Below, piece by piece: positions 741 through 51,908 of a stretch of DNA of 64,000 bases (its first letter is position 1; each line of letters begins with the position of its first letter). This DNA comes from an uncultured Chloroflexia bacterium (GTDB lineage Bacteria; Chloroflexota; Chloroflexia; Chloroflexales; Herpetosiphonaceae). The stretch spans positions 2,502,547 to 2,566,546 of the forward strand of contig CAVYBW010000001.1 in assembly GCA_963767035.1 (NCBI GenBank). Reading direction: 5' to 3'. The notes below the pieces were generated by a model that worked only from the letters and a program-made list of their open reading frames with translations, did no database searches and was not told the origin of the DNA. Both the position numbers and the translations under genes were made by a program.

Positions 741-2249
741 ATGAAGCAAGCATTCCACTCCCGTTGGATCATTTTGGCAATGTTGGTTGGCCTAGGGTTC
801 ACGCTGCCTCGTGATCAACCAGCAAGCGCCAGCCCGCAAGCATTTAGTTTCCCCTACAATCAAGCTTCAGGCATTAATTACAATGTGACCGATCTCACGC
901 AAGCCTGGAACGAATGGAAAAGTGCTCAAGTGACCAGCAACAACGCTGGGGGCGGCAATCGCTTACGCGTGCTGGGTGGGGTCAGCAATAGCAGTACCGT
1001 CTCCGAAGGTCAAGGCTATGGCATGTTGTTTGCCTCGTTATTCGATGATCAAACGACCTTTGATGGTTTATGGCTCTTCACTCGCGATTATCTCAATACT
1101 CGCGGCTTGATGCATTGGCACATCGGCAATCCCGGCCAAATTAATGGTAGCGGTGCGGCCACCGATGGCGATGAAGATATGGCCTTAGGCTTAGTCAATG
1201 CTTGTGTCAAAGTGCAACAAGGGGTTTGGCCCGCCAGCAGCAATGGCTTGAATTATTGCAGCCTTGCCACAACCATGATCAACAATATTTATACTTACGA
1301 GGTTGATCATGCTGGCAGCAACCCACCCGCCGGCTTGCCTAACAACGAAGGCAACGAGCTACTGCCAGGTGATTCTTGGTCATCAGCGACCGAATATACG
1401 CAAGGTATTGTTAATCTCTCATATTTCTCACCTGGCTATAGCACAGTCTTTGGCAAATTTACCAACAAAAATACTGAGTGGGCTGCCGTCAACACCCGCA
1501 ACTACGCCATCACCAATTTGGTGCAAGCCAAGGCTGGCAATTGCTCCAAACTTGTGCCGAATTGGAACCAATATGATGGCGATGTGCAATATGTTTCGTG
1601 GCAGCCCGAAGAATCGGCATGGTGGAGCTACGATGCCGCTCGCTTTGCATGGCGTGTTGCGATCGATAAGGCTTGGTACAACACCGCTAGCTCACGCGAA
1701 ACCATGAATGAAATTGGTGGTTTTTTCAGCAGCGTGGGCATCGACAACCTGCAAGCGCGCTATCGGCTTGATGGCACCTCGGTCGATAATTATCGCGGCG
1801 TGTTCTTCGTCGCCAATGCTGCTGCCGCAATTTGGGCCGCACCAGCTCCGCAAGCGGTCAATTGTGGAGCGGCGACCGCCAGCCTAAAAACCACGCCCCA
1901 ACAAGCTTACAACGCAGTGCTGACCACCAAAGATACGCCCAACAGCTATTATCCCAATGCGTGGCGCTTGCTGAATATGTTGCTGCTCACGGGCAATTTT
2001 CCCAATTTGTATGAAATGGGCTTAAATGGCAATGGCGGCACCGCCACTCCAACCGCTAGCGCAACAATCACCCAAACAGCAACCGCTACCCCAACCAGAA
2101 CGGCCACGGCAACCCCCAGCCGCACCCCAACTGGCACGCCTGCGACGATCACACCAGCGACAATCACGATCACGCCTAGTCGCACGCCAACGGTTATACC
2201 AAACCTGAATTATCGAATCTATCTGCCTTTTGCCAAATCGAATAGTTAA
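741..2249 (+). CDS. secreted glycoside hydrolase family 8 (endoglucanase/chitosanase-like) with a C-terminal Thr/Pro/Ala-rich tail and no CBM
   Basis: There is a signal peptide ('MKQAFHSRWIILAMLVGLGF') and the GH8 signature 'ATDGDEDMALGLVNA'. RBS 'aggag' precedes the ATG at 741; the 714 start given by the ORF track is probably too long. The tail is 'TATPTASATITQTATATPTRTATATPS'. Confidence 0.8.
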   Translation: MKQAFHSRWIILAMLVGLGFTLPRDQPASASPQAFSFPYNQASGINYNVTDLTQAWNEWKSAQVTSNNAGGGNRLRVLGGVSNSSTVSEGQGYGMLFASLFDDQTTFDGLWLFTRDYLNTRGLMHWHIGNPGQINGSGAATDGDEDMALGLVNACVKVQQGVWPASSNGLNYCSLATTMINNIYTYEVDHAGSNPPAGLPNNEGNELLPGDSWSSATEYTQGIVNLSYFSPGYSTVFGKFTNKNTEWAAVNTRNYAITNLVQAKAGNCSKLVPNWNQYDGDVQYVSWQPEESAWWSYDAARFAWRVAIDKAWYNTASSRETMNEIGGFFSSVGIDNLQARYRLDGTSVDNYRGVFFVANAAAAIWAAPAPQAVNCGAATASLKTTPQQAYNAVLTTKDTPNSYYPNAWRLLNMLLLTGNFPNLYEMGLNGNGGTATPTASATITQTATATPTRTATATPSRTPTGTPATITPATITITPSRTPTVIPNLNYRIYLPFAKSNS

Positions 2250-4767: not shown

Positions 4768-5055
4768 TTGGCTAATACAGCTTCCGCCCGCAAACGTATT
4801 CGGACTACTGCTCGCCGCTATGCTCGTAATGTCATGGTGCGATCACAACTCAAAACCTTGGTCAAAAAATCAGCGCAAAGCGTCAATGCCAAAAACGAAG
4901 CTAGCAAAGAATCGTTGACAGCAGCGTTGAAGGCCTTGGATCAAGCAGCCGCTAAAGGCATCATTCACAAAAACCAAGCAGCCCGCCGCAAATCACGGTT
5001 GGTTCGCCGCTTCAACATTGCTAACGGCATCGGCACTCGCACCACTGTGCAATAA
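4768..5055 (+). CDS. rpsT: 30S ribosomal protein S20
   Basis: 'ANTASARKRIRTTARRYARNVMVRSQLKTLVKK' is the S20 signature. TTG start with 'ggagg' RBS upstream. Confidence 0.9.
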   Translation: MANTASARKRIRTTARRYARNVMVRSQLKTLVKKSAQSVNAKNEASKESLTAALKALDQAAAKGIIHKNQAARRKSRLVRRFNIANGIGTRTTVQ

Positions 5056-30081: not shown

Positions 30082-31059
30082 GTGAGCACAACTCCTATAA
30101 GCGATTTTTTGCGCCACAACTTTCGTCACTTCAATGCAGCAGCCTTGATCGATGCCAGCGATGGCTATGTGCAGCACCTTGCCAACAATGGCAAAATGAT
30201 GATTACCCTTGCTGGCGCGATGAGCACCGCCGAATTGGGCCTCTCGTTGGCCGAAATGATTCGCCAAGATAAAGTGCAGATTATTTCGTGTACCGGAGCC
30301 AACCTCGAAGAAGATTTATTCAATTTGGTGGCTCACGATTACTATGAACGCGTGCCGCATTATCGCGATTTAACCCCCGATGATGAAGCAGCATTGTTGG
30401 CGCGCCACATGAATCGCGTCACCGACACCTGTATTCCTGAAGAAGAAGCCATGCGCCGCTTGGAACGGGCCTTGGTCGATGAATGGACATCAGCCGATGC
30501 CGCTGGCGAGCGCTATTTTCCCCACGAATTTTTGTATCGCATTTTGCGCAAAGGCGTTTTAGAAGAATTCTTCCAAATCGATATCAAAGATTCGTGGATG
30601 TACGCCGCGATGGAGAAAAACCTGCCAATCATCGTGCCAGGCTGGGAAGATTCGACCACTGGCAATATGTATGCAGCCCACGTTATGCAAGGCGAAATTA
30701 AAAACGTCCACACCGTGCGCACTGGCATCGAATACATGACCTACTTGGCCGGATGGTATATCGAGAATAGCAAAACCCATTCAATTGGCTTCTACCAAAT
30801 TGGCGGCGGCATCGCTGGCGACTTCCCAATTTGTGTTGTGCCAATGTTGCACCAAGATATGCTTATGGGCAACGTGCCAGTGTGGGGCTATTTCTGCCAA
30901 ATCAGCGATTCAACCACCAGTTATGGCTCGTACTCAGGCGCTGTGCCAAACGAGAAAATTACTTGGGGCAAGTTGGAGCCAACCACGCCCAAGTTTATCG
31001 TCGAATCAGATGCTTCAATCGTGGCTCCCTTGATGTTTGCTTTGATTTTAGGGCAGTAA
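30082..31059 (+). CDS. deoxyhypusine synthase-like protein (DHS family)
   Basis: 'ISCTGANLEEDLFNL', 'YQIGGGIAGDFP' and the general DHS fold signature. GTG start. Confidence 0.75.
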   Translation: MSTTPISDFLRHNFRHFNAAALIDASDGYVQHLANNGKMMITLAGAMSTAELGLSLAEMIRQDKVQIISCTGANLEEDLFNLVAHDYYERVPHYRDLTPDDEAALLARHMNRVTDTCIPEEEAMRRLERALVDEWTSADAAGERYFPHEFLYRILRKGVLEEFFQIDIKDSWMYAAMEKNLPIIVPGWEDSTTGNMYAAHVMQGEIKNVHTVRTGIEYMTYLAGWYIENSKTHSIGFYQIGGGIAGDFPICVVPMLHQDMLMGNVPVWGYFCQISDSTTSYGSYSGAVPNEKITWGKLEPTTPKFIVESDASIVAPLMFALILGQ

Positions 31060-39954: not shown

Positions 39955-42003
39955 ATGCAGATCAATTCCCATCCTTCAACCCGACCTAAGCAATCAGTTT
40001 GGCAAACCTATCAGCCAATCTTAACCATTGTGAGTGCAGCGCTGGCCATCCTCTTGGCCCTAATCAGCTTTGGCTTTATGCAGAGTATCGATTGGCTTGC
40101 GACCAACACCCAGCAGATCGTTGGTTTTGGCAGTTTTTTGCTGCTGGTGATATTGATCCCTGGCTGGGCGACCATTCGTTGGCTAACCCCCAAACAATTG
40201 CTAAGCCGCAGTGAACGCTGGGCTTTGAGCTGGTGCGTTGGGATTGCGCTGCCGCCAATTAGCTTGAACTTATTTCATCTTGTTGGGCTATCAATTAATC
40301 GCTGGGTGATCATCGCCTATGCTTTGCTTGGGCTTTTAGGCGCAATCTGGCCGGAACCGCGCTCGACTTGGAACCTGCGGTTCGTGCAACTCAAACAAAT
40401 CCGAATCAGCGGTCATGCTTGGCTCTTATTCAGCATTGCGCTGGTCAGCATCATTCAACGGCTGTTGGCAGTGCGCAATTTAAGCGTGGCCCAATGGAAC
40501 GATGCCTATCATCATACTATTATTACTCAGCTCTTTTTAAATAACGGTGGTATTTTCGAGACTTGGCAACCCTATGCCGATTTAAATACATTTAGCTACC
40601 ATTATGGCTTCCACGCCAATAGTGCCTTTTTGGCTTGGTGGAGCCAGCTCGCCGCCACAACCAGCGTTCTGTATACCGGCCAATTGCTGGGCGTTGCTGC
40701 TGGCGTAATGGCCTATTTGCTAGGCCGACGATTAAGCGGGCGGCCAAGCATAGGCTTGATTGCCTTTGCGCTGACCAGTTTCTACAACTTAATGCCAGCC
40801 TATTATGTTAACTGGAGCCGCTTTACCCAATTAATCGGCCAAGTTATTTTGGTTGGGTTGGTTGTGGTTTGGTTTATCGCCTTGGAATATCCACGCTTTT
40901 CGTGGAAGTTAGTTGGTTTAGCCACGATCCTAACGACCAGCCTGCTGCTCACGCATTATCTTGTGACTCTGTTCGCGGTCGTAATGGTTGGGTTGATCAT
41001 CTTGGCATTATTAGCGCTACGGCCAACATTTGAGAATTTAAAGCAATTGAGCCTACGGGCTGGCGCAATTACAATCGCCAGCGCAATCATCGCCGCGCCA
41101 TGGTTATATACGATTATTCAGAGTAAGCTCACGGCGATTGCCCGCAACTACGTCACTGGCTATAGTTCGGGCTACGCCGCAACGGTTGCCACCCTCGACC
41201 AAATTGTGCCAACCTATATTAAAGGGCCAATTATGCTTTTGGCAGTGATTGGCATTTGGCTAGCATGTGCTCAGCGCTCGTGGCGCATGCTGTTGCTGGT
41301 GGGTTGGAGCCTTGGAATTGAAATTTTGGCAGTGCCGTATGTTTTTAACTTACCAATTAGCGGCATCATTAGTGGCTTCGCTGTTTCGATCATGTTATAC
41401 CTTACAATTATCCCACTCGCTGCCTATCCTTTGGGCCTGCTGCTCGATCGATATAGCCGCCCATGGTATATCAAAGCATTGGCTTTAGCAGGCTTGTATG
41501 GCTTGATTGTTTGGTCTACGCCATGGCAAACCGCAATTGTCAACGAGCAAAATCGTTTATTGACAACTGCCGATGAGCAAGCAATGCAATGGATTCGTGA
41601 AACGACGGAGCCAGATGCCCGCTTTTTAATTAATGGGCTATCGAGCTATGGCGATGCATTAATTATTGCCGATGATGGTGGCATGTGGATTCCATTTCTG
41701 ACTGGTCGCCAAACCACGATTCCACCATTGACCTACGGCTCGGAAAAAGCCATCAATCCACAGCTTGATCGCGAAGTTTATGCGTTGTATGCAGCGTTGC
41801 GTTCAACCGCCTTAGAAAGCGCGGAAGGCATCGCATTGCTTCACAAAAATCAGGTTGATTACATTTATGCTGGCCCGCATATGGGCAAGAATGCCCAAAA
41901 CACTCAGCTTAACATTCAAGCACTCCGCTATCGGCCAGAGCAATTTCCGATTGTCTATGAGCGTGATGGAGTGGTGATCTTTGCAGTAAAGGCGCAACAA
42001 TGA
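39955..42003 (+). CDS. large polytopic membrane protein (about 14 TM plus a C-terminal extracytoplasmic domain); putative GT-C-type glycosyltransferase/polymerase or oligosaccharyltransferase-like component
   Basis: 682 aa with many TM helices and a soluble C-terminal roughly 160-aa domain. It is the first gene of the operon, start/stop-overlapped with the GT4 genes. No diagnostic motif was recognised; the function is inferred from architecture and context. Confidence 0.45.
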   Translation: MQINSHPSTRPKQSVWQTYQPILTIVSAALAILLALISFGFMQSIDWLATNTQQIVGFGSFLLLVILIPGWATIRWLTPKQLLSRSERWALSWCVGIALPPISLNLFHLVGLSINRWVIIAYALLGLLGAIWPEPRSTWNLRFVQLKQIRISGHAWLLFSIALVSIIQRLLAVRNLSVAQWNDAYHHTIITQLFLNNGGIFETWQPYADLNTFSYHYGFHANSAFLAWWSQLAATTSVLYTGQLLGVAAGVMAYLLGRRLSGRPSIGLIAFALTSFYNLMPAYYVNWSRFTQLIGQVILVGLVVVWFIALEYPRFSWKLVGLATILTTSLLLTHYLVTLFAVVMVGLIILALLALRPTFENLKQLSLRAGAITIASAIIAAPWLYTIIQSKLTAIARNYVTGYSSGYAATVATLDQIVPTYIKGPIMLLAVIGIWLACAQRSWRMLLLVGWSLGIEILAVPYVFNLPISGIISGFAVSIMLYLTIIPLAAYPLGLLLDRYSRPWYIKALALAGLYGLIVWSTPWQTAIVNEQNRLLTTADEQAMQWIRETTEPDARFLINGLSSYGDALIIADDGGMWIPFLTGRQTTIPPLTYGSEKAINPQLDREVYALYAALRSTALESAEGIALLHKNQVDYIYAGPHMGKNAQNTQLNIQALRYRPEQFPIVYERDGVVIFAVKAQQ

Positions 42004-43145
42004 AACTCTGTGTGGTTGGACCAACCTATCCCTATCGTGGGGGGATTGCTCATTACACCACGCTTTTGGTCAAACACTTGCGCGAAGTTGGCCATCAGGT
42101 GCGATTTTATTCGTATACCCGCCAATATCCGCGCTGGCTTTTTCCAGGCAAAACCGATAAAGACCCCAGTGCTACGCCATTGCGGGTTGAATGCGAATAT
42201 GTGCTCGACCCAACCAATCCAATTACTTGGTGGCGTTTGTGCCGCAAAATTCGCGCCGATAATCCCGATTTGGTGGTGTTGCAATGGTGGGTTCCCTACT
42301 GGACACCCTCGCTGAGCTATATTTCGCGCTGGCTCAAAAAACACACCAAAGCCAAGATAGTCTATATTTGCCACAATGTTATGCCGCATGATGGCGGTGG
42401 CTTTTTGGATCGGCGCATGGCTTCGACGGTGCTCAAGCAGGGCGATGCCTTGATTGTGCATAGCGACCAAGATTTGCATCGGGCGCAAGCGCTCTTGCCG
42501 CAAGCCGCCGTGCTTAAATCGCAGTTGCCCACCTTTGAAGAAGTGGCCAAACACACCGATGCGGCGGCGATTGAGCGTTTGCGTGCGCACCTTAATATCG
42601 CTACCGATCACGATATTTTGCTGTTTTTTGGCTTTGTACGGCCCTATAAAGGCTTAGAATATTTGATTCAAGCGTTGCCGTTGGTGGTGCAGGAGCGACC
42701 TGTACATTTGCTGGTAGTTGGCGAGTTTTGGGCTTCGCCCGAATTTTATCAGCGCTACACCCGCGAATATGGGGTTGAGGCCAATGTCACCTTTATCAAT
42801 CGCTATGTGCCGAATGAAGAGCTTGGCCCCTATTTCGATGTCGCCGATGTGGTAGTGCTGCCCTATATTTCGGCCACTCAAAGCGCAGTGGTGCAATTGG
42901 CGTTTGGGCTTGGCAAGCCAGTTATCACCACCCGGGTTGGTGGTTTGCACGAAGTTGTGCGCGATGGAGTCAATGGTTTGGTCGTGCCGCCCCAAGATGA
43001 AGTGGCCTTGGCCAAGGCAATTGTGCGCTACTTTAAGGATGAACTCCAAGCTCCGATGACCGCCGCCGTCCAAGCTGAACGCGGCCAACAACTGCATGGC
43101 TGGGAAAATTTGATCAACTGCCTTGAACAAATTGGGGCCAAATAA
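42000..43145 (+). CDS. glycosyltransferase family 4 (GT-B, retaining)
   Basis: 'LPYISATQSAVVQLAFGLGKPVITTRVGGLHEVVRDGVNGLVVPP' is the EX7E-type GT4 C-domain. ATGA overlap with the upstream gene. Confidence 0.8.
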   Translation: MKLCVVGPTYPYRGGIAHYTTLLVKHLREVGHQVRFYSYTRQYPRWLFPGKTDKDPSATPLRVECEYVLDPTNPITWWRLCRKIRADNPDLVVLQWWVPYWTPSLSYISRWLKKHTKAKIVYICHNVMPHDGGGFLDRRMASTVLKQGDALIVHSDQDLHRAQALLPQAAVLKSQLPTFEEVAKHTDAAAIERLRAHLNIATDHDILLFFGFVRPYKGLEYLIQALPLVVQERPVHLLVVGEFWASPEFYQRYTREYGVEANVTFINRYVPNEELGPYFDVADVVVLPYISATQSAVVQLAFGLGKPVITTRVGGLHEVVRDGVNGLVVPPQDEVALAKAIVRYFKDELQAPMTAAVQAERGQQLHGWENLINCLEQIGAK

Positions 43146-44377
43146 TGCGGCGGATTGTCTTTCTGATTACCATGGGCATTGAGCGGCCTTCGGGCCAGCG
43201 CTACTTTAATTTGGCCCGTGAACTGGTGCGCCATGGTGATCAGGTGCGAATTTTGGCGTTACACCCCGATTTAGCCCAATGCCAGCAACGCCGCTTGCGC
43301 CAAGCTGGAGTTGAAATTTGGTATGTTGGCCAAATGCATTCGCGCAAACGCCATGGCGAGGTCTTGCCATTTTCGCCGTTGCAATTGCTGTGGGTCTTAA
43401 TCACTGCCACGTTGGGAATGCTTTGGGCCATTGTTTGCTCGCCTGCTGAGATTTATCATCTTGGCAAGCCGCAACCTGTCAATGGTTTGGCAGCGCTATT
43501 AGGCGTGTTGTTGGGTCGTGGCCAGCGTTTTTGGGTCGATTGCGACGATGATGAAGTTGGCAGCAATCGCCTCACCAACCAAGCCCAGCGCATGGTCTTT
43601 GGCTTTTGGCAATGGCTCTTGCCGCGCTTGGCCAAGGGCGTAACGGTTAATACCCAAGCATTGGCCCAGCGCATGCTTCAAGCGCGAGTGCCCAAAATTG
43701 TCTACGTGCCCAATGGCGTTGATTTAGGGTTGTTCCAAGCACCGGAGCCTGTGATCTTGGCAGGTTTGCGCAGCAGTTTGGGCTTAGATGGTAAAAAAGT
43801 AATCGCCTATGTTGGCACGATTGCCTTGCACAATCACCCAATTAACTTATTGCTCGAAGCCTTCGACCTGCAATTAAAGCATGATCCGCTGATTCGTTTG
43901 CTATTAGTTGGCGGTGGCGAAGATTTGGGTTATGTTCAAAGCTGGATTCGCCAGCATGGCTACCATGATCGAATCAGCTGTTTGGGGCATCAAGATCGGC
44001 GCACGATTCCCATGTGGATGGCGCTTGCCGATGTTACGGTTGACCCCGTGTATGATGATGCGGTGGCCCAAGCCCGCTCGCCCTTGAAGCTGTTTGAAAG
44101 CTTGGCCTTGGGAATTCCCCCCGTCACTGGCGATGTGGGCGATCGTCGGCTTGTGTTGAATTTTGCAGCTGATCGCTTGATCGCTCCTGCTGGCGATGCG
44201 TTGGGTTTGGCTCAAACCTTACAAACGGTGCTGGCAACCTGGAGCGACGCAGATCGCCAAGCCTGCTTTGAACGAGCGGCTGACTATGCGTGGTCGGCGT
44301 TGGCGCTACGTTGGCGAGCAGGCTATGAGGAATATTATGCGCAACATCCGCTTGAACCAAGCCCTGCACATGAGTGA
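43145..44377 (+). CDS. glycosyltransferase family 4
   Basis: 'ARSPLKLFESLALGIPPVTGDVGDRR' C-domain. TAATG overlap with the upstream gene. Confidence 0.75.
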   Translation: MRRIVFLITMGIERPSGQRYFNLARELVRHGDQVRILALHPDLAQCQQRRLRQAGVEIWYVGQMHSRKRHGEVLPFSPLQLLWVLITATLGMLWAIVCSPAEIYHLGKPQPVNGLAALLGVLLGRGQRFWVDCDDDEVGSNRLTNQAQRMVFGFWQWLLPRLAKGVTVNTQALAQRMLQARVPKIVYVPNGVDLGLFQAPEPVILAGLRSSLGLDGKKVIAYVGTIALHNHPINLLLEAFDLQLKHDPLIRLLLVGGGEDLGYVQSWIRQHGYHDRISCLGHQDRRTIPMWMALADVTVDPVYDDAVAQARSPLKLFESLALGIPPVTGDVGDRRLVLNFAADRLIAPAGDALGLAQTLQTVLATWSDADRQACFERAADYAWSALALRWRAGYEEYYAQHPLEPSPAHE

Positions 44378-45657
44378 GCTTAGTAATGATTAAGGATTCC
44401 ACGCCAACCCAAACCAGCGTAGCCGAAACGCAATCATCAGCCAAATTGCCACGCGATCGGCTTTTTCAGATTAGCTTTGGGGTTGGCGGCGTGCTGCTAG
44501 CGCGGCTTTTGGGTATTTTTACCCAAATTATTTTGGCCCGTCGCATGGGCGCTGAGCAATATGGTTTGTTCAACTCACTGTATGCGCTCCTTAACCCGTT
44601 GATTATTCTGGCCAATTTGGGTTTGGATAATTGGTTGCTGCGCCAAAGCTCTGATCGGGTATTGCTGAATAAATCGGTTAGTCGGGTGTTTGCCTTGCGC
44701 GGCTTTGTGCTGGCAGGATTGTTATTAGTCGCTGCGCCGTTTGTGAGCATGCGCAACCCGGCCTTTACGCCGTACCTGATTGCCTTGGCCTGCGCGGGGA
44801 TTATTGGCGATTTGTTGGTTGGCACGGCGGATACCTCCTTGCGGGCCTCGATTCAGGTGCTCAAAGCCTCAAGCCTGCAAATTGTGGTGGCGCTGAGTTT
44901 ATTTGCTCCAATTTGGTTTACGCCAGAATTGCCATTTTCAACCGTGGTAATCTATCGCTGTATTGCGGTATCGCTTGGTTTCGGCCTCAGCGTCTACTAT
45001 TTGCATGGCATTTTGCGCTGGGTTTGGCAGCCGCGCCAATGGATTAATACAATTCGTGAGGCCCGTTTTTACTTCGTTTCCGAGGTAATGGCCTACTTAA
45101 CCTTACGGGTTGATCTGTTTTTGGTGGCCTTGTTGTTACCAACAATCAATTCGGCAATTTATGCACCGCCACTGGCAATCATCAACAACACCTTTTTAGT
45201 GCCCAGCATTACCGCCCAAATTTTGCTGCCCATGATTGTCAAACATCCGCCGCGTTCGCCACTGTATCGGCGGGTCATCAGCTTGGCGATTGGCTTGAGT
45301 TTGCTCTATGGTTTGGCATGGTTGGCAATCCTGAGCTGGCATTCGGATTGGATCATCAATCTGATGTATGGTGCTGAGTATGCCGAGGCCATTCCATTGT
45401 TGCAAATTATGGCGATTATTCCCTTGCTCAAAAGCCTTAATTTTTGCTGGGCCACCTTTATGGTTTCCAATGATCAGCAGCCATTGCGGGTTAAATTGCA
45501 AACCATTGGTGCAACGATTAGCATTCTTGGTAATTTTGTGGTCATTCCATTGTATGGATTGCAGGGCGTGGCGATTATTAATATGATCACCGAAATTGCC
45601 CTGTTTATCTCATATGGCTATGGTGCTTGGCTGACCTATCGGAAGGTAATGCGATGA
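44374..45657 (+). CDS. polysaccharide biosynthesis protein / oligosaccharide flippase (Wzx, MOP superfamily)
   Basis: About 12-14 TM. N-terminal 'LLARLLGIFTQIILARRMGAEQYGLF' is typical of Wzx. GTG start overlapping the upstream stop (GTGA). Confidence 0.7.
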   Translation: MSLVMIKDSTPTQTSVAETQSSAKLPRDRLFQISFGVGGVLLARLLGIFTQIILARRMGAEQYGLFNSLYALLNPLIILANLGLDNWLLRQSSDRVLLNKSVSRVFALRGFVLAGLLLVAAPFVSMRNPAFTPYLIALACAGIIGDLLVGTADTSLRASIQVLKASSLQIVVALSLFAPIWFTPELPFSTVVIYRCIAVSLGFGLSVYYLHGILRWVWQPRQWINTIREARFYFVSEVMAYLTLRVDLFLVALLLPTINSAIYAPPLAIINNTFLVPSITAQILLPMIVKHPPRSPLYRRVISLAIGLSLLYGLAWLAILSWHSDWIINLMYGAEYAEAIPLLQIMAIIPLLKSLNFCWATFMVSNDQQPLRVKLQTIGATISILGNFVVIPLYGLQGVAIINMITEIALFISYGYGAWLTYRKVMR

Positions 45658-46961
45658 AGGTTTTGTTATTAAATGCCCATTCGCCGCAAAATGCTGGCGA
45701 TTTGGCCTTGCTTGAGCAATCGTTGGCCCATTTACAGGCGGCGTTTCCCCACGCCGATCTGAGTTATGTGATTAATCAGCCCGAGCCGCCAGCATGGTTG
45801 CCTGCTGCTGTGCCATATCTTCGTTCGATCCATGAACATAAAACCAATTTGATCAAAGATGCACCCAAACCACGCCGTAAATGGCTGATGATGGGTTTAG
45901 CGATCTGGTTGGTTAGCATCAGCCTGCTCTATCGCTGGACTGGGATCAAACTCAAACCACGGGCAAGCAGTGCTTGGCGCGAATTGCTTGAGCATTATTT
46001 TGAGGCCGATGCTACCGCAGCGATTGGCGGCGGCTATTTGTATGCCACCAAAGCCTTTGATTTAAACTATATTTGGGTTTGGTTGGGAGTTGCATTGCCG
46101 GTGCTGATGGGCAAGCCGTTGGTGTTGTTGCCGCAATCGTTTGGGCCAGTTACGGGCAAAATCAACCAACTGCTCTTGGCGTGGTTGGTCAATCGCTCGG
46201 TGCTGGCCTATGCACGTGAGGAGCGCTCGCAGCAATATCTGTATAGCATCGGGGTCAATCAACCGGTGCATGTTGTACCCGATGTGGCCTTCAATTGCCC
46301 AACCGTCGAGCCAGCGCAGGCCGAGCAGTATCTGGCGCGTTGGTGGCAACCAGCCAAACGCCCAGCCTTGCTAGTTGGCATTACGGCGATGGATTTTGGC
46401 ATTCAGCACCCAGGCTCGGGGTTTAGCCATAGCCAACGCTATGAGCAAGCGCTGCTTGATCTGATTCAGCATATCAGCCAATGTGATGATGTACATATCT
46501 TGTTGTTTGCCCAATGCGTTGGCGCAAGCGAGGCCGAGGATGATCGGGTGGTGGCGCGGCGCTTGATGGCCCAATTGCCAGCTGAAACCCCGATAACCTT
46601 TATTGATGATCGCTTGCAGCCCGCGATGCTCAAGCAATTGTATAGCCAACTTGATCTGCTGATTGCAACCCGTTTACATTCGGCAATTTTTGCCTTGAGC
46701 ACCACCACGCCTAGTTTTGTGATTGGCTATTTGCACAAATCGGCGGGAGTGATGCAGATGCTCGGCTTGGCTGATTATCAAATTCCGATTGAATCGATTG
46801 ATAGTGATAACATTATTCGTGCCTTTGACCAAACTTTAGCCGCGCGCGGCTTGATTAAAACCATGATGCAGAGCGCGATTCCAGCGCTGCAACGCCAACT
46901 TGAGCGCTTGCCAAGCCAAATTCGGGCAGCGGTTGGCGATTGGTTACGAGGAGCAAACTAG
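45654..46961 (+). CDS. polysaccharide pyruvyl transferase family protein (CsaB/WcaK-like)
   Basis: N-terminal 'MKVLLLNAHSPQNAGDLALLEQSL' is the PS_pyruv_trans signature. ATGA overlap with the Wzx stop; RBS 'ggaagg'. Confidence 0.75.
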   Translation: MKVLLLNAHSPQNAGDLALLEQSLAHLQAAFPHADLSYVINQPEPPAWLPAAVPYLRSIHEHKTNLIKDAPKPRRKWLMMGLAIWLVSISLLYRWTGIKLKPRASSAWRELLEHYFEADATAAIGGGYLYATKAFDLNYIWVWLGVALPVLMGKPLVLLPQSFGPVTGKINQLLLAWLVNRSVLAYAREERSQQYLYSIGVNQPVHVVPDVAFNCPTVEPAQAEQYLARWWQPAKRPALLVGITAMDFGIQHPGSGFSHSQRYEQALLDLIQHISQCDDVHILLFAQCVGASEAEDDRVVARRLMAQLPAETPITFIDDRLQPAMLKQLYSQLDLLIATRLHSAIFALSTTTPSFVIGYLHKSAGVMQMLGLADYQIPIESIDSDNIIRAFDQTLAARGLIKTMMQSAIPALQRQLERLPSQIRAAVGDWLRGAN

Positions 46962-46969
46962 CAAACCAT

Positions 46970-48136
46970 ATGGATAAAATAACTGTAGCCCATGTAATTA
47001 CTGGCTTTGCCAGCGCAGAAGGAGCAGGCGGCTCGGCCTTGTTTGGCATCGAAGTTGCGCGTGCGCTCGATAAAAGCCGATTTCGACCCATTTTGTGTGG
47101 CATTCATCGCTTTGATACGCCCTCGGAACAGCGTTGGCTCAAAACCTTGGCCGCTGAAGCGATTGAAACGCGGATAATGGTGCCAGAGCGCAGCAAATTG
47201 CGCTACGATATGGTGCGATTTAGCGCCTTGCTCAATCAACTTGTGCGCGATCAAGCAGTCGATATTATTCATACCCATGTTGAGCGGGTTGAATTTTTTA
47301 TTAGCCTGCAAAAATTGTTAAACCCAAGCTACTACCCCAAATTGGTGCGAACGCTGCATGTTAATTCGATGTGGGTAACGCGGCCAATGGTGCGACGCTT
47401 GATGAATCTTGTCTATACGCAATTGTTTAGTGAAGAAATTGCGATTTCTCAAGCCACCAAAACCATGCTTGATCAGCGCAAGGCAGCCCGTATATTTGGC
47501 CGTTCGGCGACTGTGATTCAAAATAGCCTACCCTTGGCGCGGTTAAAAAATTTCGATTTGCCCAAACAGCACACGCCATTCAACCCACCACGCTTTTTAC
47601 TGATTGGCCGCTTAGAAATTCAAAAAGCCCAAGATATTTTTATTCAAGCGGCGGCGTTGGTGTTGCAACACTACCCACATGCTGAGTTTTGGTTGGCAGG
47701 CGAAGGCATGCAAGAGGCCAATTATCGCCAACTTGCGGCCAATTTAGCGATTGAGCATGCGATTAAATTCCTTGGGCCACGCGGAGATATCCCCGCTGTG
47801 CTCAGTCAGGTTGATGTGTTGGTCTCAACCTCGCGCTGGGAAGGCTTTGCAACCGTTATTTTAGAAGGTATGGCAGCTCGCACGCCGGTAATTGCGACCG
47901 ATATTGGCGGCAACAACGAGCAAGTTGTTGATCGTGAGACCGGGCTTTTGGTTGAGGTGGATAATCCAAGTGCAGTGGCAGAGGCGATGATTTGGATGCT
48001 GGAACACCCAACTGAAACTGCTGTGATGGCCCAGCGAGGCTACGAATGGGGGCAGCAGTTCACTATGGAACGTACTGCTGCCCAGTATGGTGCGATCTAT
48101 GAGCGGCTAATTACGGCGCAAAAATATCGACCTTGA
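46970..48136 (+). CDS. glycosyltransferase family 4
   Basis: 'VLVSTSRWEGFATVILEGMAARTPVIATDIGGNNEQVVDRETGLLV' is the GT4 motif. The ATG at 46970 is preferred over the upstream TTG. Confidence 0.8.
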   Translation: MDKITVAHVITGFASAEGAGGSALFGIEVARALDKSRFRPILCGIHRFDTPSEQRWLKTLAAEAIETRIMVPERSKLRYDMVRFSALLNQLVRDQAVDIIHTHVERVEFFISLQKLLNPSYYPKLVRTLHVNSMWVTRPMVRRLMNLVYTQLFSEEIAISQATKTMLDQRKAARIFGRSATVIQNSLPLARLKNFDLPKQHTPFNPPRFLLIGRLEIQKAQDIFIQAAALVLQHYPHAEFWLAGEGMQEANYRQLAANLAIEHAIKFLGPRGDIPAVLSQVDVLVSTSRWEGFATVILEGMAARTPVIATDIGGNNEQVVDRETGLLVEVDNPSAVAEAMIWMLEHPTETAVMAQRGYEWGQQFTMERTAAQYGAIYERLITAQKYRP

Positions 48137-48658: not shown

Positions 48659-49399
48659 TTAGCGGCGCGTAATATGTAAGCGACTTTTATGCTCAAAGCG
48701 AAATTCGGCTTGGCGGTCGCGGAAGAAATCGTCAACAGCTTGGCGACAACCAGACCAACTAATATAGTCGTCGATCACCAAGATGCCACCTGGCACGAGC
48801 TGGGGCACAATCCGTTCAAGGCAGACCATTACCGAATCATACCAATCGCAATCAATATGGGCCAAGGCGACTGGCTGATCGATTTGCAAACTATCTTCAT
48901 ATAAACCTTTGACAAGGCTCACCTGATGCGCCTCAATCGGGTAACCAGCCTCGGCAAATGCAGCAATCACCTTTTGATCAAGCGACTCTTCGTAGCCATA
49001 GTAACGCCGATCGCCCAGCCCCGCTGATTGACCACTGCTGATCACCTCGTAGCGTTGATGCACATCGTGGCCATCACGTTCTGAGGGTGGCGGAATCATG
49101 CCAAACACATCATAAATTGCAAACGGGCGCTGTTTGGCTTTGACGCTGGTGATGACAATCGCAGAACCTCCAGCAGCACAGCCCAATTCGAGCATTTGGC
49201 CAGCAATTGCGTCTTGTTCAAGCTGACGAACCGCCGACCCAAGATCAATCAAGGCTTGTTGATCAAGGTAGGTTAAGTGCTGCTTTTGAACATACTCGAT
49301 GGCATTTACTAGCTTTGGCTGAACCCGATTGAGCGTCCTCAATTGCCATGTATTGATCACGGTTGGCTTAATGTTCTTCAATGCTGCTTTGATTCCCAA
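48659..49399 (-). CDS. TylF/MycF-family sugar O-methyltransferase (class I SAM-dependent)
   Basis: 'LELGCAAGGSAIV' SAM motif I. 'LAHIDCDWYDSVMVCLERIVPQLVPGGILVIDDY' matches the macrocin-O-methyltransferase family. Confidence 0.7.
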   Translation of the reverse strand: MGIKAALKNIKPTVINTWQLRTLNRVQPKLVNAIEYVQKQHLTYLDQQALIDLGSAVRQLEQDAIAGQMLELGCAAGGSAIVITSVKAKQRPFAIYDVFGMIPPPSERDGHDVHQRYEVISSGQSAGLGDRRYYGYEESLDQKVIAAFAEAGYPIEAHQVSLVKGLYEDSLQIDQPVALAHIDCDWYDSVMVCLERIVPQLVPGGILVIDDYISWSGCRQAVDDFFRDRQAEFRFEHKSRLHITRR

Positions 49400-49485
49400 G
49401 TGTGGCTACTCCTCTGTAATTGATGCTAATTAACCCCTCTAAACAAGGCTAAACCACCTGATTAACCCAAAAGGATTAGTGGATT

Positions 49486-50205
49486 TTAGGCTATTTTACG
49501 GGCGATTAGAGCATAATTTTTGCACATGCCAGCTTCGGTAAACTTATATTGCAAGTCGAGGCGACTAAACAGCAACGATGTAAGCACGAGGATTGGTCGC
49601 AGCAGCAGTGCTGTCAAACTTCCGCCGAAGCCAGCCCAGCCACCGCCATAAAAGCGCGGATTGAGCCGCAAACTGCGCACGGCTAAATCGGCCTGATACG
49701 CTAAGGTGCCGTAATAGCCTTCAAGCCACTGGGTTTGCACAACCTGAAAGCCTGCTAGGGTTAGTTGATGCTTAAACCCAAACTGCGTATAGCGATAGAA
49801 ATCGTAAGGCACTTCGTGTTCTTCATAGAACAAAGGAGCCGAGAGCCAAAGCGTGCCATTCGGCTTGAGCAGCCGCAGCATCTCCTTTAATACCTGCTGA
49901 GGATCGGGCAAATGTTCCAAAACTTGAGTCAGCAAAATCAAATCATAGCGCTCAGATTCAACCGGAACTGCGGCCAGATCACAGACATAGGTCATAGGCG
50001 CATAGGCTTTATCAACCTGACAAAAATCGGCTGATTCATAGTGCACATGGCGAAAAAAACGCTGATATGCCGCATCGCCAGCCCCGGCATCGAGCATCAT
50101 TTGGCCTGGTTGAAGGCTTTGGGCAGCCTGCTGAACAAACTGCTCAAGATAGACCCGCGATGAGTTTTTGGCATAACGACGCAAGATTTTTGGCAAAATT
50201 GCCAT
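49486..50205 (-). CDS. class I SAM-dependent methyltransferase
   Basis: 'MLDAGAGDAAY' motif I; 'LILLTQVLEHLPDP...LKPNGTLWLS' (Methyltransf_11/23-like). Confidence 0.7.
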   Translation of the reverse strand: MAILPKILRRYAKNSSRVYLEQFVQQAAQSLQPGQMMLDAGAGDAAYQRFFRHVHYESADFCQVDKAYAPMTYVCDLAAVPVESERYDLILLTQVLEHLPDPQQVLKEMLRLLKPNGTLWLSAPLFYEEHEVPYDFYRYTQFGFKHQLTLAGFQVVQTQWLEGYYGTLAYQADLAVRSLRLNPRFYGGGWAGFGGSLTALLLRPILVLTSLLFSRLDLQYKFTEAGMCKNYALIARKIA

Positions 50206-50329
50206 AGCAACTTCCTAAAACAATAGTTAACGAACTGCCGCCAAGCATACCATGCTGTTATGTCATCAGCAAACCATGGCAACTCCACAAAAACCAAGGA
50301 ATAATCCCCCGATTAGCCAAGATGGAGTA

Positions 50330-50358
50330 TTGCGCTGAGCCTATGATCTTGTGATACT
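50330..50358 (+). promoter_or_regulatory. candidate sigma70-type promoter for the secreted repeat protein gene
   Basis: 'ttgcgc' -35, 17-nt spacer, 'TGtgatact' extended -10; located about 70 nt upstream of the RBS 'aaaggag'. Confidence 0.3.
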
Positions 50359-50428
50359 ATAGGCAGCATAACAAGGGAATACCTAAAAGCGTTTAGGTAG
50401 ATTAACGGTCTTATAAAGGAGTTCATCA

Positions 50429-51847
50429 ATGACGTTTGCGAAGCTGCGTGTACGGGCAATGATGGTTGCATTGTTGCTTTCAATCTTTGCAGTAGGCGGT
50501 CGGGGCGTATCAGCTCAAACCAATGCCTATGCAACCGCTTTCACCACCTCGATCACCTACCAAAACATTGGTACTGGTCCTGCCAACATTAACTTGACTG
50601 TTTACAGCTCAACTGGTACCCCATCAGCCATTCCATCATCAACCTTGGCTCAAAATGGCGCTGGCTCATACTTCGTTGGCTCAGTAAGCGGCTTGGGAAC
50701 CACCTTCAATGGTTCAGCTGTTATCTCAGCTGATCAACCAATTGCTGCCACCTTGGTCCAAATCCCAGCAGCAGCTTCATCTGTCAAGAACCGCCCATTG
50801 TCAAATGGTTTCACTAGCGGTTCAGATGTTGTGTTGATTCCAACCGTTTTGAAGTCATTTGCTAACTACACCAGCAAATTTGTGATTCAAAACACCGACT
50901 CAGTTGCGAACGACTTTGTCGTGCAATTCATCACCTCAGCTGGTGTTGCTCACACTGTCAATCCAACCAACGTGTTGCCAAATACCTCAGTCTATTATGA
51001 CGCTGGTACGATTGCAGCTCTTACGGGAACCTTCAATGGTTCAGTCAAAGTAACGGCAACCAAAACTGGCACCAGCAACCCTGGTAACGCTGTTGGTACG
51101 GCCCTTGAATTGCAAACCAACGGTGTTGGCGCTTATGCTTCACAAGCATTCCCAGCAAGTGCTGCTGCAACCAAAGTGTTCATGGCAACATCACTTTGTA
51201 ACTTGGTAATTCCAAGTGGTGCAACCACCTCGTTCTATGCTGTGCAAAACGCAGGGACTGCTTCAGCAAGTGTTACCGTTAACTATGTTGGTACTGCTGC
51301 TGGCAGCCCAGTCAACGTAACCTCATCAGCCGTAACGATTGCTGCTGGCGCTAAGGGTAGCTTCAACCCATGTGGTTTGGCACCAAGTGGCTTCAGTGGT
51401 TCAGCAACCATCAACTCAACCCAACCAATCTTGGCGATTGGTAAAGTTAGCGGTGGTGGCTTGTTCACCGCATTCGAAGGTGCAACCGCTGGTAGCGCCA
51501 AGACTGCATTGCCATACGTTCGCTGGTTAGCCCCAGCTCAAGGTGGCCAACAAACCTTCATCGCTATTCAAAATGTTGGTACTGCTGCTGCAACCAACGT
51601 AACCGTCAAGTACTACAGCGGTGCAGGTGCATTGCTCGGTACCCACACCATCCCAAGCATTGCTGCTGGCGCTAAAGCTAGCTCAAACCCAACGTTGGCA
51701 AGCCCAAGTGCTTCAGGCATGGGTGTTGGCGGTGGTTCAGCCGTGGTTGAAGGCGCAGGCGCAACCTTGATCGTGGTTACTCGTGTAACTTCACCTGTTG
51801 GTACAAGCACCACCGGCGAAGACTACAACGGTATTCCTTTCAACTAG
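50429..51847 (+). CDS. abundant-type secreted Thr/Ser/Gly/Ala-rich protein with four ~85-aa internal repeats (candidate surface/sheath/S-layer-like glycoprotein)
   Basis: Signal peptide 'MTFAKLRVRAMMVALLLSIFAVGGRGVSAQ'. Repeats centred on 'ITYQNIGTG', 'FVIQNTDS', 'FYAVQNAGTA', 'FIAIQNVGTA'. Many N-x-S/T sequons. Codon usage (ggt/gct/tca/gtt/caa) resembles rpsT rather than neighbouring genes. Strong RBS and a strong terminator follow. Confidence 0.7.
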   Translation: MTFAKLRVRAMMVALLLSIFAVGGRGVSAQTNAYATAFTTSITYQNIGTGPANINLTVYSSTGTPSAIPSSTLAQNGAGSYFVGSVSGLGTTFNGSAVISADQPIAATLVQIPAAASSVKNRPLSNGFTSGSDVVLIPTVLKSFANYTSKFVIQNTDSVANDFVVQFITSAGVAHTVNPTNVLPNTSVYYDAGTIAALTGTFNGSVKVTATKTGTSNPGNAVGTALELQTNGVGAYASQAFPASAAATKVFMATSLCNLVIPSGATTSFYAVQNAGTASASVTVNYVGTAAGSPVNVTSSAVTIAAGAKGSFNPCGLAPSGFSGSATINSTQPILAIGKVSGGGLFTAFEGATAGSAKTALPYVRWLAPAQGGQQTFIAIQNVGTAAATNVTVKYYSGAGALLGTHTIPSIAAGAKASSNPTLASPSASGMGVGGGSAVVEGAGATLIVVTRVTSPVGTSTTGEDYNGIPFN

Positions 51848-51870
51848 GCTAAACCTTTGGTATTCCCTTG

Positions 51871-51902
51871 GGCCTGCTCCATAATTGGAGCAGGCCTTTT
51901 TT
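51871..51902 (+). terminator. rho-independent terminator
   Basis: 'ggcctgctcc ataatt ggagcaggcc' followed by tttttt. Confidence 0.8.
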
Positions 51903-51908
51903 GTACAT

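Follow-up and report, generated by a model that had tools for sequence, protein, structure and literature searches.

The secreted protein encoded at 50429..51847 most likely serves the cell envelope as a major structural protein associated with glycan. Of the candidates at present for the main protein in the outer envelope layer of filamentous Chloroflexota, it is the best. The fuller reading that we favor, in which a highly expressed, Sec-exported, non-enzymatic structural protein is the main constituent of a layer ensheathing the filament and is held there by glycan, by a lipoprotein or by both, we judge slightly better than an even bet. The initial annotation had proposed a major extracellular structural protein such as a sheath, S-layer or fibril subunit. 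Its core idea is supported by the abundance of an ortholog in a cell-surface fraction, by a codon bias found phylum-wide, by linkage to a lipoprotein gene and a glycan cluster, and by the lack of an enzyme fold, all of which point to an abundant, secreted, non-enzymatic envelope protein. Such a protein may form an S-layer lattice, a sheath or outer-layer matrix, or a fibril.

What the layers outside the peptidoglycan of filamentous Chloroflexota are composed of has for decades been part of the debate over whether these bacteria are monoderm or diderm, and recent cryo-ET papers still call their nature 'enigmatic' or 'unclear' (PMC7332563, PMC13319060). The protein described here is a concrete candidate that is conserved over the filamentous classes and comes with a confident model, a candidate anchor and a conserved glycan pathway, and one published proteomics dataset already points to its family. 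If the favored reading is correct, the gene would serve as a marker for envelope type in the many Anaerolineae and Caldilineae that live uncultured in wastewater, sediments and hot springs, and the ASRAH sugar-binding fold would be extended to a structural role.

Table 1. Features of the locus, in coordinates of the window (the whole 64,000-nucleotide stretch of DNA that was analyzed).
Feature	Position	Strand	Basis or remarks
CDS, secreted four-domain protein, 472 aa	50429..51847, stop included	+	ORF list
Sec-type signal peptide, residues 1-29	50429..50515	+	basic n-region, hydrophobic core, V-S-A before predicted cleavage site
Repeat/domain 1, residues 31-132	50519..50824	+	QN 45/46, FNGSA 93-97; hhalign against other repeats, E 2e-13 to 2e-7
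Repeat/domain 2, residues 133-248	50825..51172	+	QN 154/155, FNGSV 202-206; model strand beta2 ends at N155
Repeat/domain 3, residues 249-358	51173..51502	+	QN 273/274; invariant Cys257 and Cys315
Repeat/domain 4, residues 359-472	51503..51844	+	R365-W366, QN 381/382, terminal EDYNG motif
Conserved upstream region	50300..50428	+	~95% identical in six Herpetosiphon genomes
Candidate promoter	TTGCGC 50330-50335; GATACT 50353-50358	+	17-nt spacer ending TGT; inferred only
Short 5'-UTR hairpin	50380-50399	+	within conserved upstream region
RBS AAGGAG	50416-50421	+	7 nt upstream of ATG; read from sequence
Intrinsic terminator	51870..51903	+	12-bp stem with 8 G-C pairs, 4-nt loop, T-run
Partner lipoprotein gene, 173 aa	48111..48632	-	lipobox L-V-G-C, P/T-rich linker, C-terminal beta domain
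Two SAM-dependent methyltransferases	48659..50205	-	TylF-like 48659-49399, class I 49486-50205; Pfam
Glycan-biosynthesis cluster	39955..48136	+	Pfam and NCBIfam
Multi-TM protein	39955-42003	+	12-14 TM helices and C-terminal soluble domain; unclassified
GT4	42000-43145	+	Pfam/NCBIfam
GT4	43145-44377	+	Pfam/NCBIfam
Wzx-type flippase	44374-45657	+	Pfam/NCBIfam
Polysaccharide pyruvyl transferase	45627-46961	+	Pfam/NCBIfam
GT4	46940-48136	+	Pfam/NCBIfam

The open reading frame is a real gene, with a Sec signal peptide, a strong ribosome-binding site and a clean terminator, and a public protein collection contains one 100% identical protein together with orthologs at 82–91% identity, the named ones among which came from Herpetosiphon species. 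Cleavage of the signal peptide is predicted after V-S-A, and in the AF2 model a helix at residues 2–22 is followed by a stretch of pLDDT below 50 (residues 23–29) and then by a chain that is modeled confidently from residue 31 on. As initially noted, none of the usual anchors was found: the signal peptide ends in GRGVSA followed by Q and has no Cys of a lipobox (the first Cys is residue 257), no SLH match was detected in the protein or in 45 homologs, and LPXTG is missing from the chain, whose C terminus (...GEDYNGIPFN) lies within the final beta-strand of domain 4. The ribosome-binding site and terminator had both been called strong, which agrees with the features listed in Table 1, and the former is invariant across a six-genome Herpetosiphon alignment. 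The supposedly plausible sigma70-like promoter lost statistical support, as a consensus scan gave three weak matches against 1.9±1.7 in shuffled sequences and did not call the TTGCGC-17-GATACT element. This element, which has an upstream TG (50330-50358) and lies inside the block conserved in six Herpetosiphon genomes, is at best a weak candidate. The fold of the 5′-UTR hairpin was no better than those of shuffled sequences (z -1.05), and an Rfam search of the window found no RNA element.

The codon bias that had been ascribed to the gene was confirmed, and no other gene in the window is as extreme. On RSCU PC1 it scored 5.09, the most extreme value among the 45 window genes, compared with 1.77 for rpsT, and its Nc of 35.3 was undercut in the window only by that of rpsT (33.9). 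Its two-fold NNY codons were shifted to C (C fraction 0.64 versus ~0.27 in other window genes) and its four-fold codons to T or A, and because these shifts move GC in opposite directions, the bias is not a simple foreign-GC effect. The claimed match to rpsT held for the direction of the bias but not for each single codon (the three glycines of rpsT are all encoded by GGC and none by GGT), in a comparison that rests on only 95 rpsT codons and takes its reference from the genes of the window. The bias recurred in orthologs, which had the lowest Nc among their neighbors in 22 of 63 loci, compared with 8% by chance, and ranked first in all six Herpetosiphonaceae loci with enough neighbors to rank.

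The four-fold repeat that had been read from the sequence is likewise real, except that its unit is about 110 residues rather than ~85, successive QN motifs lying 108–119 residues apart (Table 1). Profile–profile comparison (hhalign) of the four segments yielded E values of 2e-13 to 8e-6 and was needed to reveal the repeats, which a blastp self-comparison did not. Of the pattern said to be shared by the repeats, Q-N and the G of F-x-G-S are present in all four and are invariant across the four repeats in eight species (pooled alignment), whereas Q-P-I occurs only in repeats 1 and 3. The suspected beta-sandwich structure was borne out by the AF2 model, which is all-beta with a pLDDT of 91.4 and a pTM of 0.86, and in which the mature chain of ~443 residues and ~45 kDa is composed of four tandem TM1070/ASRT-like (ASRAH, CARDB-like) beta-sandwich domains. 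The best structural matches were ASRAH domains and carbohydrate-binding modules. There was no whole-chain match in the PDB; Foldseek returned only strings of complement/macroglobulin domains at TM ≤0.17, which we rejected as generic beta-sandwich matches. The four domains would pack into one compact pseudo-tetrameric body, which a conserved disulfide in domain 3 may stabilize. The protein has exactly the one Cys pair initially reported, residues 257 and 315, and this pair is invariant in 45 of 45 homologs, as expected of an extracytoplasmic protein. Also as reported, T, S, G, A and N exceed 55% of the mature chain (57.8%); the full composition includes 15.5% A, 12.3% T, 11.7% G, 11.0% S and 6.1% N. 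Charged residues are very few (5.4%, with a family median of 10.2%). The pI is 9.0 within a family range of 4.2–9.4 that is not consistently acidic, and a non-acidic pI is atypical of a classical S-layer protein.

The homolog search that had been suggested uncovered a large unnamed family of 386 clusters at E≤1e-30, almost all of whose members are 455–510 residues long and aligned over nearly their full length. The family occurs across filamentous Chloroflexota, with members in Herpetosiphon, Anaerolineae, Caldilineae and Ardenticatenia. Whether the query was the protein itself, the profile of its family or that of the pooled repeats, searches of Pfam, NCBIfam and PDB sequences produced nothing significant beyond weak matches to CARDB. 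Cultured Roseiflexus and Chloroflexus, such as R. castenholzii and C. aggregans, have no S-layer by cryo-ET, and Ca. Viridilinea has an apical one; when we looked for relatives of a protein from a 'Roseiflexus sp.' MAG, no named Roseiflexus or Chloroflexus match appeared among the 120 closest listed, most of which were nameless.

The genes around the family are conserved as well. A partner lipoprotein was present in 66 of 80 loci and was encoded upstream of and divergently from the family gene in all 63 loci holding both; in Herpetosiphon the two methyltransferase genes are inserted between them. In the lipoprotein family alignment the Cys is conserved and the linker variable. The lipoprotein had a weak CarboxypepD_reg match in Pfam, its single-sequence AF2 model reached a pLDDT of only 35.6, and its beta domain was unrelated to the repeats of its neighbor (hhalign probability 0.1). 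A fusion protein, P0270, that combines repeat units with CarboxypepD_reg domains was considered as a 'Rosetta-stone' link to the lipoprotein and set aside as too distant and too repetitive. Genes of the glycan cluster adjoined the family as well: among the 80 loci, GT4 enzymes were present in 66, the pyruvyl transferase in 58, the flippase in 50 and the multi-TM membrane protein in 31, while a TylF-like methyltransferase recurred in 32 loci and a class I enzyme in 15. The lipoprotein and the glycan cluster were missing at some loci and beside some second copies of the gene.

Evidence on abundance comes from published proteomics of Litorilinea aerophila (PRIDE dataset PXD066799), in which the syntenic ortholog A0A540VDF2 ranked second by iBAQ copy number and third by weight among 1,272 proteins, with an LFQ intensity ~12 times that of EF-Tu. 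The sample was material that shearing had released from the cells and that had then sedimented at 200,000 g, formed a band in CsCl and failed to pass a 100 kDa filter; it was surface-enriched but not clean, being also rich in cytoplasmic proteins, with glutamine synthetase ranked first. The behavior of the ortholog in the centrifuge and on the filter is suggestive of large assemblies. According to the L. aerophila paper, the sides of the filament bear a protein layer that looks like a lattice; the paper calls the identity of the layers unclear and does not discuss A0A540VDF2. The gene for this ortholog adjoins the same glycan cluster, and its contig ends 361 nt upstream, which places any lipoprotein ortholog beyond reach; a 175-aa neighbor proved unrelated to the partner lipoprotein. 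The literature on Herpetosiphon proteomics and on Anaerolineae metaproteomics mentioning S-layers yielded nothing usable.

In the mechanism that we propose, the protein would be the main protein of a layer ensheathing the whole filament in filamentous Chloroflexota, and this layer would correspond to the 'protein layer' of lattice-like appearance, which either lies on the shared 'outer layer' or belongs to it. The protein would assemble into high-molecular-weight arrays, its sugar-binding-type domains may bind non-covalently to the pyruvylated, methylated wall glycan presumably made by the adjacent cluster, and the array could be retained at the surface, additionally or instead, through the divergently encoded lipoprotein acting as a stalk, with its flexible P/T linker running from the lipid anchor to the globular head. 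Older fine-structure work on Herpetosiphon reportedly showed filament ends that were empty. A 'sheath' in Herpetosiphon has itself been questioned by fine-structure work (PMC3368417). Going further, the protein family, the lipoprotein and the pyruvyl-/methyl-glycan cluster might constitute a module that builds both the non-lipid 'outer layer' and the protein layer common to all cells of the filament, giving a two-component, glycan-linked envelope made from an ASRAH pseudo-tetramer. We put this wider idea forward tentatively and consider it rather doubtful; if true, the module would explain the diderm-like look of these bacteria, which have neither LPS nor BAM genes.

A rival role for the protein is that of an abundant, secreted, lectin-like accessory protein that binds, cross-links, caps or chaperones the polysaccharide of the cluster and forms no ordered layer. 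The structural matches to ASRAH domains and carbohydrate-binding modules favor such a role, as do the fusion of Chloroflexi ASRAH tetrads to peptidoglycan amidases and the argument that the superfamily binds sugars (PMC2739507), the tight linkage of the gene to the glycan cluster, a rare family member with a weak GH25-like C-terminal domain, and a peptidoglycan–polysaccharide complex of Herpetosiphon that is cited in the reference list of the H. aurantiacus genome paper (PMC3368417). The mean column identity of 49% in a family alignment spanning Chloroflexota classes is far above what is usual for exposed S-layer proteins and counts against a layer. Conservation this high would be easier to reconcile with a ligand that is itself conserved than with a lattice exposed at the surface. 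What speaks for large assemblies instead is the very high abundance of the L. aerophila ortholog and its recovery in pelleted material retained above 100 kDa, an argument weakened by the fact that a protein attached to large pieces of glycan would be recovered in the same way. On balance we consider an accessory role unlikely, and the foremost competitor of the structural one.

The relationship of protein and cluster could also be the reverse, with the protein an S-layer-type glycoprotein that accepts, rather than binds, the glycan made by a neighboring 'slg'-type cluster. In Gram-positive bacteria, S-layer structural genes often adjoin S-layer glycan clusters, which counts in favor of this arrangement. 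The chain is rich in S and T (23%), the cluster has a flippase, GT4 enzymes and methyltransferases, and its multi-TM protein, which had no match in PDB sequences, Pfam or NCBIfam, could be a GT-C-type transferase. The initial annotation had moreover described the protein as sequon-rich, but its 8 N-x-S/T sites are no more than expected from composition-preserving shuffles (6.7±2.3, p=0.34), the family mean of 5.9 is close to the expected 5.6, and the only site conserved as a sequon, N203, belongs to the structural FNGS motif. These shuffling and conservation statistics led us to reject an N-glycosylation reading, and no oligosaccharyltransferase, Wzy_C or PglB/AglB domain was recognized in the adjacent cluster. 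We judge an acceptor role for the protein improbable.

Still less probable is that the protein builds surface fibrils or appendages as their subunit, or acts as an adhesin in gliding or cell–cell cohesion, and forms no continuous layer. The L. aerophila ortholog did copurify with sheared filamentous appendages, and Herpetosiphon glides (PMC3368417), but the compact four-domain body does not resemble any known subunit of the donor-strand or pilin kind, no usher, sortase or pilus-assembly genes occur at the loci, and the hooks, pili and archaella of L. aerophila were assigned to other proteins in its paper. A secreted enzyme with an unrecognized active site, for instance one modifying glycan or cell wall, would fit the predatory habit of Herpetosiphon, the enzymes encoded next door and several invariant charged residues of the family (R122, K142, E227, K309, K339, R365, K416, E464 and D465), yet it is very improbable given that the match to an enzyme family that would have spoken for it was sought and neither such a family nor an enzyme fold was found, that most of the conserved motifs are shared by each of the four repeats and so look structural, and that the family also occurs in non-predatory anaerobes.

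Among known systems, the structural protein that we favor is closest to the ASRAH superfamily (ASRT/TM1070-like), which has been argued to bind sugars and whose domains form tetrads in proteins secreted by Chloroflexi (De Souza, Iyer & Aravind 2009, PMC2739507); in the closest branch, secreted tetrads from Roseiflexus, Chloroflexus and Herpetosiphon are fused to an N-acetylmuramoyl-L-alanine amidase (PMC2739507). The model has a beta-sandwich with TM1070 topology, four mutually related domains lie in one secreted chain from the same phylum, and the compact model is consistent with a pseudo-tetramer. The hallmark Asn that ends strand 2 corresponds to the invariant QN of all four repeats in eight species, with model strands ending at N46, N155, N274 and N382. 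Unlike that branch, the protein has no amidase or other catalytic domain and its family has a conserved gene neighborhood of its own. It also showed no significant sequence-profile match to ASRT or TM1070: only one of 45 family members matched PF07100 (ASRT; E 0.003), and neither 1nc7 nor 2ii7 was retrieved from PDB sequences with the family and pooled-repeat profiles. The protein does not have the SHEshChhN ligand signature. Of its repeats, repeat 4 alone begins strand 1 with the hallmark Trp that follows a polar residue (R365-W366), the corresponding positions being P-T-V-L-K in repeat 2 and M-P-S-A-L-C in repeat 3, with no strand in repeat 1.

With CARDB (PF07705) the protein has in common a V-x-V-x-N-x-G...A strand pattern, and some database records name homologs 'CARDB domain-containing protein'. 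Repeat 4 alone scored 24.2 bits against a gathering score of 22.7, with partial coverage (profile positions 25–70 of 101), whereas the whole protein scored 20.0 bits, under the 22.7-bit cut-off; repeats 1–3 had no match, and matches were weak and limited to nine of 45 family members.

Three further systems offer parallels in organization. The subunits of archaeal sheaths have a low charge content. According to two reports on Methanospirillum and Methanothrix (PMC10593813, PMC6242892), these sheaths are proteinaceous tubes common to a chain of cells and built of beta-rich subunits, which resembles the ensheathing layer proposed here, but the subunits described there are amyloid-like and form hoops; the protein had no sequence or structural match to them and shows no sign of amyloid architecture. 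In the SLH/CsaB systems of Bacillus, Paenibacillus and Thermus, S-layer proteins are anchored by SLH domains to a secondary cell-wall polymer that is pyruvylated through CsaB. As there, a WcaK/CsaB-related pyruvyl transferase is here encoded beside an abundant secreted surface protein, and an S-layer-like protein layer has been seen in a species that bears the family; here, however, the protein is without an SLH domain, the pyruvyl transferase scored 74 bits against the 213-bit cut-off of the CsaB equivalog, and a pyruvylated glycan is a putative ligand. Finally, SlaA/SlaB of Sulfolobales form a two-component S-layer of a lattice subunit and a membrane-anchored stalk, in which the SlaB-type anchor is a coiled coil with a TM segment. 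We detected no relationship to these proteins in sequence or fold. In the present case the putative partner is a lipoprotein, its linker is rich in P and T, and the host is a bacterium with peptidoglycan. What the two systems would share is their logic, in which an abundant secreted subunit of multiple beta domains is paired with a small, co-encoded, membrane-anchored partner that has an extended linker.

The initial annotation had described the mature chain as four repeats of about 85 amino acids; the four-fold repetition held up, but the QN pairs at residues 45/46, 154/155, 273/274 and 381/382 put the period at 108–119 amino acids. Comparing the protein with itself by blastp did not detect the repeats. 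Profile–profile comparison of the four segments, taken from a 45-member family alignment, related all six pairs (E = 2e-13 to 8e-6), and the Q-N and the Gly of F-x-G-S were invariant in a pooled alignment of the four repeats from eight species. In the alignment, the C-terminal EDYNG takes the position of the AFEG and SNGF motifs closing repeats 1–3; it is the last strand of a domain, not a sorting signal. The composition proved as described, with T, S, G, A and N making up 57.8% of the mature chain, as did the single Cys pair (Cys257 and Cys315), both members of which were invariant in 45 of 45 homologs. Charged residues were strikingly scarce (5.4% in this protein, with a family median of 10.2%), and the pI of family members spanned 4.2 to 9.4.

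An AlphaFold2 model built with a 45-sequence alignment (pLDDT 91.4, pTM 0.86) was all-beta, with four similar, confidently packed sandwiches, in agreement with the beta-sandwich repeats that had been suspected. Searching the PDB with this model using Foldseek gave no matches besides the single-domain TM1070 and chains of macroglobulin-type domains with very low TM, and matches at the sequence level were limited to weak CARDB hits, of which that of repeat 4 alone lay narrowly above threshold. De Souza et al. defined the ASRAH superfamily of ASRT/TM1070-like domains, argued that it binds sugars, and gave as its hallmark a nearly invariant Asn closing strand 2; its secreted versions are dyads, or else tetrads, which in Roseiflexus, Chloroflexus and Herpetosiphon are fused to an amidase acting on peptidoglycan and possibly mimic the TM1070 tetramer (PMC2739507). 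As in ASRAH domains, the invariant QN ends the second strand of each modeled repeat, whereas the hallmark Trp occurs in repeat 4 only, and family sequence profiles compared with ASRT found no connection. The model supports a stand-alone tetrad of ASRAH-like (CARDB-like) domains, an assignment made from the fold and one hallmark residue and not from sequence-profile membership. Fusions of the four-domain module were rare: one homolog (P0242) has a weak GH25-like C-terminal domain, paralleling the published amidase-fused ASRAH tetrads, and another (P0201) has EGF repeats. A further homolog, P0270, is highly repetitive and ends in CarboxypepD_reg domains.

The repeat family proposed initially turned out to be large, with more than 900 proteins at E≤1e-3 in a word-indexed search. 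Among the 120 matches listed, proteins were 454–506 aa long with 92–100% query coverage, identity outside the Herpetosiphon orthologs was 41–59%, and those with a name were annotated as 'hypothetical' or 'CARDB domain-containing'. When 1.84 billion representatives were searched exhaustively with a profile, 2,803 proteins reached E≤1e-3, 386 of them E≤1e-30, and the full-length matches were uniform in length. The window belongs to a Herpetosiphon species: one database protein was 100% identical, and orthologs in H. aurantiacus, H. geysericola, H. giganteus and H. llansteffanensis were 81–87% identical. The genomes with family members comprised Herpetosiphon, Anaerolineae, Caldilineae, Ardenticatenia, Thermoflexales, Roseiflexaceae MAGs and Thermanaerothrix. 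The gene also appeared on short contigs labelled Methanomethylicaceae archaeon, Melioribacter sp. or Pelotomaculum sp. (P0069, P0084, P0072; locus L061), which probably reflect mis-binning rather than transfers because these proteins are 45–50% identical to Chloroflexota proteins and L061 has the same lipoprotein neighbor.

Features discussed in the text, in window coordinates unless a locus (L) is named
Feature	Position	Strand	Remarks
Secreted protein, C-terminal part	5-658	+	cut by left window edge; T/P-rich linker and CBM_2
GH8 glycoside hydrolase	714-2249	+	
rpsT	4768-5055	+	
EF-G-like paralog	5483-7594	-	GTPase motif region GHGGAGKTT
Deoxyhypusine-synthase family	30082-31059	+	Pfam DS E 2.5e-37
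Unclassified multi-TM protein	39955-42003	+	682 aa; ~12-14 predicted TM helices; ~170-aa soluble C-terminal domain
Conserved upstream block	50300-50428		
UACCUA...UAGGUA hairpin	50380-50399		
Four-repeat protein ORF	50429..51847	+	472 aa
Terminator	51870-51903		12-bp G+C-rich hairpin and T-run
LuxR-Kelch / M23	L007:1738-3051 and equivalents in 23 loci; L013:13138-14277	-	
ORF downstream of L. aerophila ortholog	L081:1904-2431	-	basic, 175 aa

The codon usage had been called that of a highly expressed gene; with the genes of the 64-kb window as reference, the gene was the extreme point on RSCU axis 1 (5.09) among 45 window genes; rpsT came fourth on the same side (1.77), and the Nc of the gene (35.3) was second only to that of rpsT (33.9), the lowest in the window. 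Compared with 43 other window genes, codon fractions rose for GGT (0.60 versus 0.19), TCA (0.56 versus 0.10), CCA (0.83 versus 0.46), GCT (0.48 versus 0.22), TTG (0.73 versus 0.41), TTC (0.75 versus 0.24), AAC (0.72 versus 0.39), GAC (0.67 versus 0.16) and TAC (0.57 versus 0.25). Because two-fold pyrimidine-ending codons shifted to C while four-fold families shifted to T or A, a foreign or shifted G+C content cannot explain the pattern, which looks like translational selection. Among 63 related loci with enough neighbors to rank, the ortholog had the lowest Nc of its neighborhood in 22 (chance expectation 8%), including all six ranked Herpetosiphonaceae loci. Elsewhere in the window, the truncated CBM_2 ORF (Pfam E 1e-31), which precedes the GH8 gene, had the second most extreme codon usage (RSCU PC1 3.15), and the deoxyhypusine-synthase-family gene had one of the lowest Nc values (37.7). 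The EF-G-like paralog adjoining rpsT has ordinary codon usage and so is probably not the housekeeping fusA.

Two of the expression signals claimed for the gene were found, namely a strong ribosome-binding site (AAGGAG, 7 nt before the ATG) and a strong terminator after the stop codon. The third, a sigma70-like promoter, was not supported by a consensus scan: there was no strong consensus, with three weak matches versus 1.9±1.7 in shuffles. The 130 nt upstream are near-invariant (~95% identity across six Herpetosiphon genomes) and hold TTGCGC, a 17-nt spacer ending in TGT, and GATACT, which is only a candidate promoter. A hairpin in this block has an invariant stem and a variable loop across the six genomes, with an unexceptional folding energy (z −1.05). 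The N terminus fits a cleaved Sec signal peptide, given its basic n-region, hydrophobic core and V-S-A ahead of residue 30, and the modeled helix at residues 2–22, disorder at 23–29 and confident structure from 31 on.

Evidence for abundance came from Litorilinea aerophila, whose full-length ortholog (P0109; WP_141611114.1; UniProt A0A540VDF2) is 45% identical and has beside it the same cluster of methyltransferase, GT4, pyruvyl transferase and flippase genes. In the data of Joest et al. (2026; PMC13319060, Supplementary Table 2), A0A540VDF2 ranked second by iBAQ copy number and third by weight of 1,272 proteins, with an LFQ intensity ~12 times that of EF-Tu, and is never mentioned in the text of that paper. 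Shearing had released the material from cells; it was then pelleted (200,000 g), collected as a band in CsCl and concentrated with a 100 kDa filter (PMC13319060). A 49-kDa protein recovered in this pelleted, filter-retained fraction must belong to large assemblies or be attached to them. These data speak strongly for abundance and less strongly for localization, the sample being impure, with glutamine synthetase at rank 1. The contig ends 361 nt upstream of the ortholog, and the lipoprotein partner could not be located in that genome; the ORF downstream is unrelated to the lipoprotein and possibly a mobile-element fragment.

The gene neighborhood was described from 80 loci, whose predicted ORFs were grouped by blastp. 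A gene for a ~175-aa lipoprotein was present in 66 of the 80, and in all 63 loci holding both genes it lay upstream of and divergent from that of the four-repeat protein, usually as its immediate neighbor, with two methyltransferase genes intervening in Herpetosiphon. The aligned lipoproteins share the lipobox Cys and a ~110-aa C-terminal beta domain, weakly CarboxypepD_reg-like, joined by a P/T-rich linker whose length varies greatly. Adjoining the pair were GT4 glycosyltransferases (66/80 loci), a WcaK/CsaB-related polysaccharide pyruvyl transferase (58/80), a Wzx-type flippase (50/80), and TylF-like (32) or class I (15) methyltransferases. In 31 of the 80 the glycan cluster was accompanied by an unclassified protein of 12–14 TM helices with a soluble C-terminal domain; the copy in the window had no match in Pfam, NCBIfam or PDB sequences, and its architecture resembles that of GT-C-type transferases or polymerases. 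Downstream in 23 loci, mainly of Anaerolineae (several labelled Anaerolineaceae), and in many of them directly 3′, lay a gene fusing a LuxR (GerE) HTH to a Kelch beta-propeller, often followed by an M23 peptidase gene, which recurred downstream in 9 loci, again mainly Anaerolineae. The LuxR-Kelch protein may serve to regulate this module specifically; Herpetosiphon loci had no such gene. Some Anaerolineaceae MAGs contain a second full-length copy lacking the lipoprotein and glycan cluster (L016, L019 and L025, in genomes also holding L014, L018 and L017).

The evidence best fits a non-enzymatic structural protein of the filament envelope that is secreted and highly expressed, and that would be coupled genetically, and probably physically, to a wall glycan and a small lipoprotein. 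It would make up the protein layer or the protein component of the outer layer, with its sugar-binding-type domains attaching to the pyruvylated and methylated glycan and the lipoprotein (lipid anchor, flexible linker, globular head) serving as stalk or organizer. One rival is an abundant accessory protein that would bind the glycan without building a lattice. Alternatively, the protein could be a glycoprotein that accepts the glycan of the neighboring cluster; its reported richness in sequons did not survive comparison with shuffled sequences (8 N-x-S/T sites versus 6.7±2.3, p=0.34), the family mean was 5.9 versus 5.6 expected, and the sole sequon-conserved site, N203, lies inside the structural FNGS motif. 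A fibril or adhesin subunit is a further rival, and an unrecognised enzyme the weakest.

The domain type and the concept of abundant surface-layer proteins are already known. Within the curated libraries searched and the literature covered, the family itself, the stand-alone ASRAH-tetrad architecture, the wide conservation across filamentous Chloroflexota classes, and the constant association with a divergently encoded lipoprotein and pyruvyl-glycan cluster all appear undescribed. Cryo-ET of L. aerophila revealed a lattice-like 'protein layer' over a shared 'outer layer' on the lateral filament surface, layers whose identity was stated to be unclear (Joest et al., 2026; PMC13319060), and the outer layer of Chloroflexales has been called 'enigmatic' in nature (Gaisin et al., 2020; PMC7332563); this family makes the question directly testable. 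Speaking against a classical S-layer are the family's high conservation, its variable pI and the doubt cast on a true sheath in Herpetosiphon.
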